From an uncultured Mycoplasmatota bacterium (GTDB lineage Bacteria > Bacillota_I > Bacilli_A > RF39 > UBA660): 64,000 nt of DNA. Both the position numbers and the translations under genes were made by a program. The notes under the pieces are model-generated. The model ran no database searches, had not been told where the DNA came from, and was given only the letters and a program-made list of their open reading frames with translations. The stretch covers positions 75,878 to 139,877 of the forward strand of contig URLC01000001.1 in the NCBI GenBank assembly GCA_900548695.1, written 5' to 3'. Shown piece after piece: positions 26,065-31,142 of the stretch (position 1 is the first letter of the stretch; each line of letters starts with the position of its first letter).

Positions 26065-26397
26065 ATGAATAGTAAAAAGCAAGATATGAAAGTTCAATAT
26101 GATTTACTCTTAATTGATGAAGATATTGAAAAAATTCCACAAGATAGTTATTTATCAATTAGTTCTAGTGCTATAGAATTTGTACCAAAGTTAGGAGAAC
26201 AAGAGACTGAAGAATTTTTTAGATCAAAAACTGGTATTCATACTTTATATGTTTCTTCTCATCCTGAAAAAATACAGGTAGCCTGTCAATATGCTATAGA
26301 CACATGTTTTTTAAATAATGGAATTAACGATATCGGTAATTTTGATAGAACTTATGAAATTCCATATACTAAACAATTAACAAAAAAACTCTACTAA
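26065..26397 (+). CDS. Hypothetical 110-aa protein (orphan; strong RBS AAGGAGGAG)
   Basis: Consensus-strength RBS, and a terminator hairpin AAACTCTAC-taaaaa-GTAGAGTTT overlapping the stop. No recognisable domain. Confidence 0.5.
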   Translation: MNSKKQDMKVQYDLLLIDEDIEKIPQDSYLSISSSAIEFVPKLGEQETEEFFRSKTGIHTLYVSSHPEKIQVACQYAIDTCFLNNGINDIGNFDRTYEIPYTKQLTKKLY

Positions 26398-26410
26398 AAA
26401 GTAGAGTTTT

Positions 26411-27409
26411 CTATTTTTTACTGGTTTCTTTCTTTTTATAGAATGTTAATGCAGTTTCTTTTAATACATCTTGTAAACATTCTGGTGTATATGATTTTAC
26501 TAAAAAGAGACTATTAAATAATACTGGATTAGATGATAGAATCTTTTTTATTGATGATAGCTCTTGGAGTTTAAAATCCGGATTTACTTCATATATATAT
26601 TTTCTAAATATGTTGTTATAGGGGTTTACTTTGTTATTGGTCCAAGGTTTTATTCCTAATAATCCATAACTATGTAATATTTTTGGATTCATTTTTGATT
26701 CTTTTACCATTTCTAAATCTTTATCAAACCTATCGCAAAATAAACTTAACGTCAACCCTTGCATTAGACTAATAGCTGGTGACAAATTATAACTCATTGG
26801 TAATTCTTCTATATCTGTTTCTAATGTGCAATTTAATACATCTTGATCTGGATATATTAACTTTTTAGTTGGATTATCTTTCATAAATTTTATTACTCTT
26901 GCTTCACAATTCTCTTTTTTCCACCAATTAGTATTTATCTTTAATACTCCGGAATTAAAATATCTACTTACCCCTAAATCCTTAATATAAGATGGATGAG
27001 CATTGTCTAACACTGCGTGAATTTTTCCATGATACTGATTTAAATCATTTAAATCACCTGTTACTATTGTATCTGAATCTAAATATAATAACTCCTCTAT
27101 ATTGTCTAAGTTTTTACCCAGTATTTTTTGAAAAAATAATCTAGCATTAGCAACTTGAGTGTCTTGCCATCCGGGAATCTGATATTTTTCTAAATGAAAT
27201 TCCTCAATAGGATAAAATGATAAGGTAACATTAGGAAATTTATCTAATAGTATTTGTACTTTCTTATCGTCATGATCTAAAAAACCTTCTGTCATCATAT
27301 GAATCCTTATATTTTCAATTTGAGAATTATCAATTACTGATAATATAGATGCTAAAGTTATATTTAAATAACTTCTATTAGTTGCATATAAAATATCTAG
27401 ATGTTTCAT
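26411..27409 (-). CDS. Glycosyltransferase family 8 (GspA/LPS glucosyltransferase-like)
   Basis: 332 aa; N-terminal ILYATNRSY and the DxD motif LYLDSDTIV are typical of GT8. Confidence 0.7.
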   Translation of the reverse strand: MKHLDILYATNRSYLNITLASILSVIDNSQIENIRIHMMTEGFLDHDDKKVQILLDKFPNVTLSFYPIEEFHLEKYQIPGWQDTQVANARLFFQKILGKNLDNIEELLYLDSDTIVTGDLNDLNQYHGKIHAVLDNAHPSYIKDLGVSRYFNSGVLKINTNWWKKENCEARVIKFMKDNPTKKLIYPDQDVLNCTLETDIEELPMSYNLSPAISLMQGLTLSLFCDRFDKDLEMVKESKMNPKILHSYGLLGIKPWTNNKVNPYNNIFRKYIYEVNPDFKLQELSSIKKILSSNPVLFNSLFLVKSYTPECLQDVLKETALTFYKKKETSKK

Positions 27410-27554: not shown

Positions 27555-30101
27555 TTAGGAATTACTTGCAACTTTTGCTGCTTTTTTATACCTTCTAATC
27601 ATTTGTTTCACATTCTTATCATTTATATTATTCAAGCAAGATGGGACATATTCTCGTTTGCTATTTAATTTAGTTAGTAACCCTTTTACTTCTTCTGATG
27701 CTTCTTCTGGCTCATAAGTACCTCTTTCAAACTTATGTAAAGTATTTAATAAATAAACTCCTGTTTCTGTTTCTGGGTTTAACTCTATAGTACTATCAGT
27801 AGTTTTTTCTGAAACATAGTAGCTTTCTGTTACTTGATCTAAGACTTCAAATATTTTATGAGCTTTATGTTTAGAAACTTTCATTAAGTCTGATACCATT
27901 TCATTATGGTTTTTTAGAATTAATCTATCAGAATCTGGTAATCTGCTCTTATAAATGAAGGGAATACTATTGTTAGTGAAATTATAAGCTAACATTTCTG
28001 ATAGATAAGTACTTACTATCTTAGTGATAGATGTTTCTTGATATCTATTTTCATCCAACTCTAATTTTTCTTGTAATAAGGCTAACCAACCTTCAAACTC
28101 TTTAGCTTCTAAAACCTCACGATAATTATCTAAATCTTTAGAAGTTAGAGTTTTACTTATTTTCAAATTAGCTGGTGTAATAGCGGCTTTTTTTAATTTT
28201 CCTTCTTTAGTTACTAAGCACTGAAAGAGCATCGTTGGATAGAGTTTATCTTCAGTAAAAGTTGGTAAAGAAAGGGTATTTGTTTCTAATTCTTTTTGTA
28301 ATAAATCATTAAAGTTAACTATTTTAGTAGTATCTAAGATATGAATACCAATATTCTTACTTCCATCTGGTAAGTAACTAATCGAAAATGCAAAAGGTTC
28401 TACTCCATCAATTTTGAAAGTTTTGCAAGTTAGGGTTTCTTGATACGTTGGATATTTCAACCGATTATTATGTTCTACTCCTTCATCTAAAGAGTATTGA
28501 TATAACTCTTCTTTGGTGGCATCATCGATTTTTTCAAAAGTTTCTTTATAATCAAGATTATTAAAAGAATTTTTCTGAAAAGCAATTAATTCTTCTATAT
28601 CTTCCAAAACTTTACTGGTCGTTTGATATCCTTTACCTTTTACATATTCGCTAAACTCATTAAGACGAGTGGTATATTTAGTTAATTCTCGTGGTAATAA
28701 GTCAACTTCTTTATTAATAAATAATTTTATTATTTCCTTATAAAAATCGGGACTTTGATATTCTAGATTTTGATCTAGGAGAGCTAATTTATAATTTTTG
28801 ATAAATTCATCTAATACCAATAATACAAAATGCTCTTTTTCAGTTTTTTCAACTTTTTTTCTAGAGTTACCATTTTTCTTTATACCCTCTTTTCTAGCTC
28901 TTTGAAACTCTTCAATTTCTAGTAAATTTTTTATATAAGGATAATTTCTATCATCTTGTATTAATTTATATAAAATTTCGTAATAGATACTGGTATCTTC
29001 ATCATACTCATAAAATATAGGTCTAATCTTAACGAATTCTTTTTCGACTAGACGTAAAAATTCTTTTTCTAAATCTAGACTAGCACTTTGCCCTTTTTTA
29101 ATACCTTTTCTTGTTTTTTTAATAATATCTTCAGCCAGATAAGTTAACTCTTCTAATTCTTTTTTTGGCAAATCTTGAAGATCAGATAATAATTTAGTAA
29201 TTTCTTCTGGTATTCCATTTTCTAATTTATAGCCGTACTTTTGAAGATATTTCCCACTTTCTAATCTTCTTAATATACGTTGTAATTCTTGCTCCGTTTT
29301 ATTTCTTGGCTCTAAAAAATCTTTGCTTTCAATTAAATCTTCATTGGTAAATTCCAATTTTGTCATATCTTTTATTTGTTTATTTTCTAAATCTATTAAT
29401 GTAGTGATATCTTTTAAAATGTGATGAGCCTTCTTCACTTCAATTGCTAGTGTTTCTAGCTTTTCTTGGAATGGTTTATATTCTTTGGTATTGAGTTTAT
29501 CGTATAGTACTTTTTTTGTTGTGGCGCGATTTCTTTTTATATTTGCATCTTCTGCTACCATATTTTTTATTCTTTCGAAAGTTTCTTTTTTATAACGGTC
29601 TAATTCTTGGGTTGCTTCTTTATAGATTTTTTCCAAATGTCTTAAAATGGTTATTTTCTCGTTGGACATTTGAGATTTAGCATATTCTTCTACTAGCTCT
29701 TTCGCTTCTTTACTTACCCAATAATTAATGGCATTGATTTCTTCTATCAAATGTTGTTTTCTTTCATTGATACCAATTGATTTTTTCTCTTTTCTTCTAT
29801 AATTTTCTGGAATGGAAATATTTCTTTTTATTTCAGACAAGCGTTTTTCTGCTTCTTTTAATTCTTTTATTTCAGTTTGCTTTTCAATTGATAAATCCAT
29901 TTCTCCTCTTTTGTTATAGGCTCTTTTCGCTGTTGCTGCTTTTTTTCTTCTTGTGATTAACTCCTTTGTGATTAAAGATAAGAACTCTTTTGTTAATGTT
30001 GCTTCAAGCTTTTCTTGCAATTCTTCTAAGTCTTTGGCATTTTGTATATGAACAATTGCTTCTTCTATTAATTTTTTAGTTTCTTCCTTATTTTGTTCCA
30101 T
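27555..30101 (-). CDS. Large (848 aa) coiled-coil protein with C-terminal degenerate RNase II/R (RNB)-like domain
   Basis: Long Lys/Glu-rich N-terminal region. The segment TFKIDGVEPFAFSIS...IGIHILDTTKIV aligns to RNB motif I (TIDxxDAxDFDDAxS...VHIADVS). Most of the catalytic Asp positions are substituted. Confidence 0.45.
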   Translation of the reverse strand: MEQNKEETKKLIEEAIVHIQNAKDLEELQEKLEATLTKEFLSLITKELITRRKKAATAKRAYNKRGEMDLSIEKQTEIKELKEAEKRLSEIKRNISIPENYRRKEKKSIGINERKQHLIEEINAINYWVSKEAKELVEEYAKSQMSNEKITILRHLEKIYKEATQELDRYKKETFERIKNMVAEDANIKRNRATTKKVLYDKLNTKEYKPFQEKLETLAIEVKKAHHILKDITTLIDLENKQIKDMTKLEFTNEDLIESKDFLEPRNKTEQELQRILRRLESGKYLQKYGYKLENGIPEEITKLLSDLQDLPKKELEELTYLAEDIIKKTRKGIKKGQSASLDLEKEFLRLVEKEFVKIRPIFYEYDEDTSIYYEILYKLIQDDRNYPYIKNLLEIEEFQRARKEGIKKNGNSRKKVEKTEKEHFVLLVLDEFIKNYKLALLDQNLEYQSPDFYKEIIKLFINKEVDLLPRELTKYTTRLNEFSEYVKGKGYQTTSKVLEDIEELIAFQKNSFNNLDYKETFEKIDDATKEELYQYSLDEGVEHNNRLKYPTYQETLTCKTFKIDGVEPFAFSISYLPDGSKNIGIHILDTTKIVNFNDLLQKELETNTLSLPTFTEDKLYPTMLFQCLVTKEGKLKKAAITPANLKISKTLTSKDLDNYREVLEAKEFEGWLALLQEKLELDENRYQETSITKIVSTYLSEMLAYNFTNNSIPFIYKSRLPDSDRLILKNHNEMVSDLMKVSKHKAHKIFEVLDQVTESYYVSEKTTDSTIELNPETETGVYLLNTLHKFERGTYEPEEASEEVKGLLTKLNSKREYVPSCLNNINDKNVKQMIRRYKKAAKVASNS

Positions 30102-30422: not shown

Positions 30423-31142
30423 ATGGATATTTTTATTAATAATCAAAGATATTCTATTGATAAAAAAAACTTTTTAAATGATGGAGCTAGTGGGAACTGT
30501 TATAGACTAAAAAAGGAGAACCTTGACTTATCAGTTAAGATATATCACGAGAAAGATCCTATGGGTTTTGGAGAACCTTGGTTTCCTGATGAAGATACGT
30601 TAAAAAAATTAATTGAGTTATCACCACAAACCAATCCTATTTTATTGAGTCAGTTTATAGTAAGGGATGAAAATGGTAAATATATAGGTTGCGCTAAAGA
30701 CTATGTTGATGATTTAGGACTAGATACTTTAACAGAAGTTTTTTCACAACCTAAAGGCATTATAATTGATTACTTACAAGAAATTCAGGAGAAAATTCCA
30801 TTATTTCATGAGGCAGGTATTATTTTAGACGATTGGAATACTGATAATATTTTATTTGGTTCGCATTTAGGTAAAGAAGGAATTTATGTTTTTGATGATG
30901 GAAACTATTATTTTAGTGATGATACGAGTTCTAATCATCTTGAATTTAACCATTTAATTGAAGATTTAGTTGATAATTTCGTTCCAGAGCACAAATTCGG
31001 CAAAGCTAAATCCTATATTTTGAATGAAATGTATAATTCGTCTGACTATTTAGAATACTTAATTAGATTAAGCAATAATAGTAATACTTTAGGAGAAGGA
31101 TTATCTAATCATGTTCAAAAAATTAAAATGAAGTACTATTAA
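30423..31142 (+). CDS. Small protein-kinase-like fold protein (CotS/bacterial spore kinase or Kdo-kinase-like)
   Basis: Gly-rich loop DGASGNCY, lysine VKIY, catalytic-loop-like ILDDWNTDNILFG and DxG-like VFDDGNY. Confidence 0.4.
   Translation: MDIFINNQRYSIDKKNFLNDGASGNCYRLKKENLDLSVKIYHEKDPMGFGEPWFPDEDTLKKLIELSPQTNPILLSQFIVRDENGKYIGCAKDYVDDLGLDTLTEVFSQPKGIIIDYLQEIQEKIPLFHEAGIILDDWNTDNILFGSHLGKEGIYVFDDGNYYFSDDTSSNHLEFNHLIEDLVDNFVPEHKFGKAKSYILNEMYNSSDYLEYLIRLSNNSNTLGEGLSNHVQKIKMKYY

Follow-up and report, generated by a model that had tools for sequence, protein, structure and literature searches.

In the RNB domains of RNase II/R-type exoribonucleases, motif I binds Mg2+ and the 3′ end, and an acidic DxDD cluster holds the catalytic Mg2+. 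The catalytic residues of RNase II were reportedly identified by Frazao et al. 2006 as D201, D207, D209, D210 and R500. A summary of these residues for the Escherichia coli enzyme is available, and RNase II homologs without the aspartates are expected to be inactive (PMC8097288). Pseudonucleases of the RNB/RNase II family are represented in the searchable literature by fungal cases only, namely Ssd1 and Sts5. These proteins derive from Dis3L2, keep the order cold-shock domain 1 (CSD1)-CSD2-RNB-S1, and have a channel that is blocked by insertions (PMC8934651, PMC8097288). Despite their dead RNB domains they are sequence-specific RNA binders, with the RNA bound on the cold-shock domains (PMC8934651). 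Here we describe a bacterial protein with a degenerate RNB fold, called X below, which comprises 848 amino acids (aa; about 98 kDa) and is encoded in a 64,000-nucleotide (nt) stretch of DNA from an uncultured Mycoplasmatota bacterium (GenBank assembly GCA_900548695.1, contig URLC01000001.1, positions 75,878–139,877; hereafter the window).

A trimmed RNB fold in an unnamed Bacillota family

The gene for X is an uninterrupted open reading frame (ORF) on the minus strand of the window that begins with ATG, exactly as delimited in a preliminary description made from the sequence alone (27555–30101), and a Shine-Dalgarno-like AGAGGTGA lies 6 nt 5′ of its start. When compared with an 88%-identical ortholog (locus L016), the ratio of nonsynonymous to synonymous substitution rates (dN/dS) is 0.13 overall and 0.14, 0.12 and 0.13 for residues 1–250, 251–525 and 526–848, respectively. 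Because the values are 0.12–0.14 in all three regions, the entire gene is under purifying selection. X has no predicted transmembrane segment (the maximum Kyte-Doolittle 19-residue mean is 1.07), and the protein is predicted to be soluble.

Searches with X gave no significant match in Pfam or NCBIfam, no RNB match in Pfam even at E ≤ 1, and nothing by phmmer against PDB sequences. Public collections contain the identical sequence, on contigs of up to 366 kb and without a name from any source. A word-indexed homolog search returned 10 clusters at 90% identity, and a repeat with alignment A2 recovered the same 10 proteins and nothing further. An exhaustive search yielded 57 representatives (clustered at 50% identity), of which 38 had E ≤ 1e-10. 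The family comprises hundreds of sequences in gut metagenomes, and neither Pfam nor NCBIfam has a model for it. All genome matches are to uncultured gut Bacilli, Mycoplasmatota or 'Tenericutes' metagenome-assembled genomes, including Candidatus Faecimonas gallistercoris. X therefore belongs to an unannotated and unnamed family of Bacillota. For the comparisons below, 46 family members were aligned at full length, and the C-terminal 324 residues were aligned for 41 diverse members (alignment A3).

The preliminary description had proposed that the C-terminal third of X holds a catalytically degenerate RNB-like domain, on the basis of three peptides: TFKIDGVEPFAFSIS and IGIHILDTTKIV, likened to motif I and the VHIADVS block that follows it, and SIPFIYKSRLPDSDRLIL, likened to a later RNA-binding segment. 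The peptides are present at residues 561–575, 584–595 and 712–729, respectively, and HMMER aligns them with the RNB blocks named. A profile built from the 11 closest sequences had its best PDB match in Bacillus subtilis RNase R (8CDU; E 0.013), in two collinear stretches that correspond to both of these motifs. With the A3 profile, RNase R (E 2.3e-4) was the sole match below 0.1 among all PDB sequences. In these alignments, AFSISY..DGSKNIGIHILDTT is paired with the B. subtilis RNase R block and N.IPFIY.S.LP with NVPFIYRIHEEP. When the 46 members were scanned singly, RNB (PF00773) was the sole recurrent Pfam family, found in 2 of the 46 with a best E of 2.2e-4. X itself falls below the Pfam gathering score for RNB, and its remote homology is instead seen by profile methods.

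For a profile-profile comparison, five RNB domains (B. subtilis, Mycoplasma genitalium, human DIS3, E. coli RNase R and RNase II) were rebuilt from PDB alignments and E. coli loci. Alignment of A3 with these domains by hhalign gave a probability of 93% and an E of 3.3e-7 over 282 columns. The reversed template gave 0.1% (E 0.43), and the central domain of the family compared with RNB gave 0.0%.

Structure prediction agreed with the profile results. An AlphaFold2 (AF2) model of A3 (residues 525–848), made without templates, had a predicted local distance difference test (pLDDT) score of 92.4 and a predicted template-modelling (TM) score of 0.88. Foldseek matched this model to 43 PDB chains with E values of 1e-10 to 2.4e-5, probabilities of 1.00 and query TM scores of 0.5–0.61; the 44th match had an E of 0.23. 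All 43 chains are RNB-family proteins, namely RNase R, RNase II, Rrp44/Dis3, Dis3L1/2, Dss1 or the pseudonuclease Ssd1, and identity to RNase R is 13–15%. A separate and shallower model of the full-length protein (pLDDT 66 overall, 75–89 for residues 550–700) also retrieved RNB proteins only, with root-mean-square deviations of 3–4.5 Å over 136–173 columns in local superpositions. In the viral library BFVD, giant-virus RNB exonucleases were the only matches. Two models and BFVD thus place X within the RNB three-dimensional fold. Because the profile and structure results lie far beyond chance and the controls are clean, we conclude that X is a remote RNB homolog. Its RNB-like part spans about 260 aa, compared with about 370 aa in active enzymes.

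Catalytic elements of the RNB domain are missing

Motif I of X reads strand-KID-GVEP-FAFSISY, with a loop of 5 residues (4 in many members) where RNase R has 9. Realignment over the 41 members bore out the earlier claim that most of the metal-binding aspartates are replaced: of the acidic cluster formed in RNase II by D201, D207, D209 and D210, DxDD is replaced in 41 of 41. The D210 position, which precedes a conserved alanine, is Y or F in 35 of 41, and the D209 position is occupied by K, N or P. Only the D201-equivalent position just after strand 1 has kept an acidic residue (31 of 41 members, E or D). For D565, hhalign and secondary structure disagree on the matching aspartate, and in either register no more than one of the four acidic residues is left.

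Other parts of the RNB domain have also been lost. In the profile alignment there is no counterpart to the motif II loop (SVYL..IPMLP), which in B. subtilis RNase R is the 18-aa GTSVYLVDRVIPMIPHRL at residues 309–326, and hhalign finds none for residues 415–433 (a 19-aa beta-hairpin) or 519–535 (a 17-aa helical segment). The segment THFTSPIR (555–562), which holds the motif IV arginine (R500 of RNase II), is deleted in the hhalign alignment, in which local confidence is low at this point. A helix stands at its place, and G781 (38 of 41) lies at or next to it in an alternative register. Pfam searches and the helical model revealed no CSD, OB, S1 or HTH domain in X, whereas close relatives of E. 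coli RNase R (≥80% identity) all carry PF08206, PF17876 and PF00575.

The structural core has been kept. H587 is found in 41 of 41 members, D590 in 40, P714 in 39 and Y717 in 38, and Y621-P622 and Y762 are also retained; H732 is present in 37 of 41, and K667 is near-invariant. A polar motif at residues 731–755 forms the fourth most conserved 15-residue window of the family. It is without counterpart in active RNB domains and faces an unrelated RNase R segment in the hhalign alignment.

Because DxDD, motif II, the hairpin and TSPIR are lost and CSD and S1 domains are absent, canonical RNB 3′-5′ hydrolysis would be impossible for X. Profile, structure and realignment all agree on a catalytically degenerate domain, and neither of the two outcomes that the preliminary description had named as refuting it (no RNB-fold match, or aspartates present on realignment) was seen; by these predictions X is a pseudonuclease with a minimal dead RNB core and no exoribonuclease activity. 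The motif II loop, the hairpin and the TSPIR segment form the substrate channel of RNB domains, and X has probably lost the canonical RNA channel as well. The preliminary description had further supposed that the pseudonuclease retains RNA binding; this appears doubtful, because the channel elements and the RNA-feeding CSD and S1 domains are gone, which leaves the claim unsupported. The acidic isoelectric point (pI) of the RNB-like domain (5.1) was considered as an argument against nucleic-acid binding and then dropped. Since genuine RNB domains are equally acidic (pI 5.0–6.3), this value is uninformative on the matter.

Comparison with described RNB proteins

RNase R (B. subtilis Rnr, 8CDU; M. 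genitalium, 7DCY/7DID) shares the RNB fold with X and is its best match in both sequence and structure. The DGS..IGIHILDTT block of X matches the DG.. block of RNase R, IPFIYK of X pairs with NVPFIYR of RNase R, and both proteins have a basic C-terminal tail. Unlike RNase R, however, X has no HTH, CSD1, CSD2 or S1 domain, is about 110 aa shorter through missing segments, and carries an unrelated helical region of about 520 aa at its N terminus. E. coli RNase II (2IX0/2IX1) has the same fold and served as the reference for catalytic residues, of which at most the D201 position stays acidic in X and the others are replaced. When X was compared with this single sequence by hhalign and hmmsearch, no usable alignment was obtained outside one strand. 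A short RNase II-family protein from Deinococcus radiodurans (2R7D), compared by structure match alone, is another shortened bacterial RNB protein, but matches X less well (E about 1e-6) than RNase R does, and the helical N-terminal domains of X match nothing in the PDB.

Like Ssd1/Sts5 (7AM1), X has an RNase II-family fold under selection in which the catalytic aspartates are lost, and the fungal proteins are non-enzymatic (PMC8934651, PMC8097288). X differs from them in being bacterial, in having Firmicute RNase R as its closest relative, in showing deletions rather than insertions, and in lacking CSD and S1 domains; the Dis3L2 descent, the CSD1-CSD2-RNB-S1 order and the blocking insertions of Ssd1 are not features of X. 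Because X is bacterial, closest to Firmicute RNase R and deletional, its catalytic loss is independent of that in Ssd1. The family would therefore be an independent bacterial case of an RNase II-family pseudonuclease, beside the fungal ones. The route is also different, since channel elements and RNA-binding domains were deleted and new helical domains fused, whereas Ssd1 keeps its domains.

Helical regions flanking the RNB fold

X consists of four parts: a helical arm (residues 1 to about 300), a conserved domain (about 340–500), the RNB fold (555–815) and a short basic helix, which alone follows the RNB part in the AF2 model. The preliminary description had assigned the N-terminal 500 or so residues to a Lys/Glu-rich coiled coil. 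Its account of composition and secondary structure holds, in that K and E make up 33% of residues 1–250 and 28% of residues 251–525, and the N-terminal 520 aa are almost entirely helical in the AF2 model. Residues 1–300 are poorly conserved (about 1.0–1.3 bits per column over the 46 members); the first 140–280 residues are absent from some members, and variants of 684–701 aa lack the region of residues 1–250. However, the coiled-coil assignment does not extend to residues 340–500 or so, which form a domain of short helices and a hairpin and are the best-conserved part of the family. Conservation peaks at residues 370–500, where the top motifs are LDxFIxNYKLKLxxQ (430–444) and YYxILxxLxxDxNY (373–387). 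No relative of this central domain was found among PDB sequences (best E 0.32), and no fold match was obtained.

Two weak matches in this part of the protein were rejected as chance. A match to Sda (PF08970) at residues 341–358 (E 0.004, below cutoff) is attractive in view of the replication-gene context described below, but it involves only 18 helical residues and is seen in 2 of the 46 members. Matches to NEDD4 HECT at residues 360–500 (E 0.06–0.1) disappeared with a deeper profile of the central domain, for which the best E was the value of 0.32 given above.

The family gene follows dnaB and dnaI in divergent members

We looked up the gene neighbourhoods of ten clusters that are 23–31% identical to X, of which one lay on too short a contig and nine were informative. 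The neighbourhoods considered in this study comprise 12 look-ups and 10 genome loci, which represent a sample and not a census. In five of the nine clusters (P0029, P0032, P0036, P0039 and P0047) the family gene lies 9–35 base pairs (bp) downstream of dnaI and is co-directional with it, in the order (ftsW)-dnaB-dnaI-X. The gene thrS follows X in four of these five, and also in one cluster that lacks dnaB-dnaI. In two loci, Rfam detects a T-box leader directly behind X; X is therefore the last gene of the dnaB-dnaI unit, and thrS is preceded by a separate leader. Between dnaB-dnaI loci, DnaB and DnaI are 50–71% identical (DnaI 50–67%) and ThrS 57–87%, compared with 25–33% for X. The gene order dnaB-dnaI-X has survived considerable divergence (DnaB about 55% identical).

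The corresponding operon of B. subtilis is dnaB-dnaI-ytxB-ytxC-thrS (PMC8208703), in which ytxB-ytxC occupy the same slot, dnaB-dnaI-(...)-T-box-thrS, as X. This is a positional analogy only, and X and the 46 members have no YtxC or DedA-type Pfam match. Other contexts of the family gene include Tex/nrdD, SMC, NT5C/MazG and CoatF/MacB. The preliminary description had placed the gene in a lineage-specific block. This is apt for the clade of the window, where it lies between pcsB and uvrB, but the family is wider, and its divergent members have the dnaB-dnaI-X order instead. We regard the dnaB-dnaI linkage as suggestive rather than universal.

A small conserved ORF (126–163 aa, no Pfam match on record) lies between X and thrS in three loci (L022, 8751–9227; L024, 8704–9195; L018, 6681–7061). 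Its products are 38% identical between L022 and L024, and it is located downstream of the detected T-box leader in L018 and L024.

A proposed binding or scaffold function

Our preferred interpretation, held with moderate confidence, is that X is a non-enzymatic binding or scaffold pseudonuclease whose partner is most plausibly tied to replication or the chromosome cycle. The former nuclease core would be kept as a rigid platform, in which the conserved features are structural (the HxLDT strand, YP and PFIY) or family-specific (NHN...AH). This core and the central domain may jointly act as the module that binds a partner (protein or single-stranded nucleic acid), and self-association or tethering may be the role of the variable helical arm. 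The partner would be linked to replication initiation or restart, or to the chromosome and division cycle, rather than to bulk RNA decay. Such a partner is plausible because X is the last cistron after dnaB-dnaI in divergent members. We take this position as ancestral; in the clade of the window, the gene would have been relocated to the vicinity of ftsEX-pcsB, where GT8 became its neighbour.

Several observations weigh against this interpretation. The dnaB-dnaI linkage is missing in four of the nine informative clusters and is absent from the clade of the window, which itself contains no dnaB, dnaI or thrS; because of these absences, the linkage may represent positional inheritance and not a functional coupling. 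We infer the binding or scaffold function, and the ligand is predicted only. Note that the residue equivalences in motifs I and IV come from a profile alignment of low local confidence, and that any remaining channel is judged from the deleted segments only. Finally, a new active site built from the invariant H587/D590 and the near-invariant H732, Y717 and K667 is conceivable.

We see a modest chance that X is instead an Ssd1-like RNA-binding regulator, in which specific RNAs are recognised by the dead RNB domain, or by a new surface on it, and have their translation or stability regulated in this way. The fungal proteins provide a precedent (PMC8934651), Ssd1 is among the best structural matches, and both the N-terminal arm and the C-terminal tail of X are basic. 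However, Ssd1 uses for RNA the cold-shock domains that are absent here, the channel-forming RNB segments are deleted in X, and no RNA-metabolism gene is a conserved neighbour, save for a single case beside Tex.

A more specific form of the replication-linked scaffold is unlikely, and we offer it as speculation. Here, an RNA-decay fold would have been exapted into Firmicute helicase loading, with X as an accessory factor that is produced alongside DnaB and DnaI. At oriC or where forks restart, the dead, trimmed core of X would grip either the end of a single-stranded nucleic acid or a protein of the primosome, and the fast-evolving arm would act as a tether, for example to a membrane-proximal DnaB complex or the division apparatus. 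If this is true, X would add a component to the initiation of replication in Gram-positive bacteria and would be the first RNB pseudoenzyme from bacteria. In either form, the scaffold interpretation suggests a connection, open to testing, between a fold once used in RNA decay and the Firmicute dnaB-dnaI helicase-loader operon. Should the link prove merely positional, the family would still be a clean, annotatable bacterial pseudoenzyme.

It is very unlikely that X is still an enzyme, a nuclease or hydrolase with new chemistry at a relocated site drawn from H587, D590, H732, Y717, K667 and the NHN motif. Although several of these polar residues are invariant or nearly so and NHN...AH is family-specific and highly conserved, H587 and D590 lie in the counterpart of the H-I-A-D strand, a conserved element of active RNase R that takes no part in catalysis, and no metal-binding acidic cluster is conserved.

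Equally, X might be a fast-evolving accessory, defence or mobile cargo protein without any replication link, its contexts varying by horizontal movement. X is indeed far more divergent than its neighbours: genomes of the window's clade share 90–93% identity in uvrB and 54–75% in pcsB compared with 36–47% in X, the DnaI comparison given above shows the same disparity, and at least six different contexts were seen. Nevertheless, we judge this explanation highly improbable, given that no PADLOC (defence) or PHROG (phage) model matches X at E ≤ 0.1, that the neighbours are housekeeping genes with no flanking integrase, transposase or phage genes, that the GC content is like that of the surroundings, and that dnaB-dnaI synteny is kept where DnaB is only about 55% identical. 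We give practically no credence to the idea that the RNB resemblance is chance motif recall or that the ORF is a decaying rnr remnant, which could appeal to the missing Pfam and NCBIfam matches of the window protein and its low identity to RNase R but is refuted by the structure, profile and control results, the intact ORFs in 57 clusters and the dN/dS of 0.13.

Features of the locus and its surroundings

The window is chromosomal DNA of low GC content (26–33%), which the gene for X resembles, and its housekeeping genes include uvrA/uvrB, ftsE-ftsX-pcsB, secA, argS, murA, mreB and glycolytic genes. The coordinates of X and its immediate neighbours are collected in Table 1.

Table 1. Positions of X, its parts and the adjoining genes in the window
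Feature	Position	Strand	Basis
Complete gene, 848-aa family member	27555..30101	-	Stop codon 27555-27557; ORF list, 57 homolog clusters, dN/dS
Variable basic (pI 9.2) K/E-rich long helices, residues 1-250	29352..30101	-	Conservation, composition, AF2 helices ≤40 residues
Central helical domain, residues 251-525	28527..29351	-	Conservation profile, alignments A1 and A4
Trimmed RNB (RNase II/R) fold, residues 555-815, ~260 aa	27657..28439	-	AF2, Foldseek, BFVD, hhalign, hidden Markov model against PDB
Degenerate motif I and retained HxLDT strand CKTFKIDGVEPFAFSISYLPDGSKNIGIHILDTTKIV, residues 559-595	28317..28427	-	HMMER/hhalign alignment to RNase R; column counts
SIPFIYKSRLPDSDRLIL, residues 712-729, counterpart of RNase R NVPFIYRIHEEPNAEKL	27915..27968	-	HMMER and hhalign alignments
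Conserved polar motif NHN..C..L.KIPK.EAH.IF.ILD, residues 731-755	27837..27911	-	Family-specific; conservation profile
Helix ETGVYLLNTLHK at motif IV place, residues 779-790	27732..27767	-	TSPIRRY Arg absent (hhalign)
Basic C-terminal helix (pI 10.3), residues 821-848	27558..27641	-	Composition; AF2 helix at A3 positions 299-323
GT8 glycosyltransferase, directly downstream	26411..27409	-	Pfam Glyco_transf_8, E 9e-29
Divergently transcribed 239-aa ORF	30423..31142	+	Weak Bud32/Kdo-kinase-like NCBIfam matches, E 0.006-0.1

In the clade of the window, the DNA that separates ftsE-ftsX-pcsB from uvrB is variable and includes the family gene. This gene is followed by the GT8 gene on the same strand in the window and in loci L016 and L008, a clade-specific linkage; in L001–L007 an unrelated 285-aa gene takes the place of GT8. 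No terminator was found between the genes for X and GT8, and a perfect bidirectional terminator hairpin is located at 26383–26412. The GT8 gene is probably co-transcribed with that for X. The divergent 239-aa ORF, which may encode an atypical small kinase-fold protein, has homologs that adjoin the family gene in L008 and L016, and is thus a neighbour in the closest clades only.

Several further genes were observed near X. A 110-aa ORF without a family match (26065–26397, plus strand) shares the bidirectional terminator at 26383–26412 with the GT8 gene. It is conserved at 40–45% identity, convergent to the region of the family gene, in L001, L002 and L004–L007, and in L016 the corresponding position is occupied by a 113-aa gene. 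In L016, moreover, a gene for a Cof-type HAD phosphatase (882–1667) is inserted immediately upstream of the family gene, such that the cluster consists of the kinase-like ORF, HAD, X and GT8.

Elsewhere in the window, Rfam identifies the leaders S10-Clostridia (3390–3488, minus strand) and L31-Firmicutes (51406–51433, minus strand), which fits a Firmicute chromosome. Near 59800–60300 the GC skew changes sign and gene orientation flips: large ORFs are all on the minus strand up to argS (59844) and on the plus strand from a PBP gene (60269). This switch at about 60 kb is a diverging-replication pattern, yet neither a DnaA-box cluster nor dnaA is found there. A gene for an AAA_14/DUF4143 ATPase, a type often associated with mobile elements or defence, lies at 7762–9102 (minus strand) amid glycolytic genes (pgm, 6250–7752). 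Just upstream of gap-pgk, two near-identical copies of an element of about 55 nt, TCTTTTGACACTTTTTTGTCGTAAAAAAATATCCACAGCTTTTGTGGATATTTTT (13536–13590 and 14203–14255), flank a 178-aa ORF without a Pfam match (13603–14139, minus strand). Each copy contains a 9-bp hairpin with a T-run (a terminator for the minus strand) and a GACAC-T6-GTC inverted element, and the duplicated element may be a terminator/operator module of the glycolytic operon.

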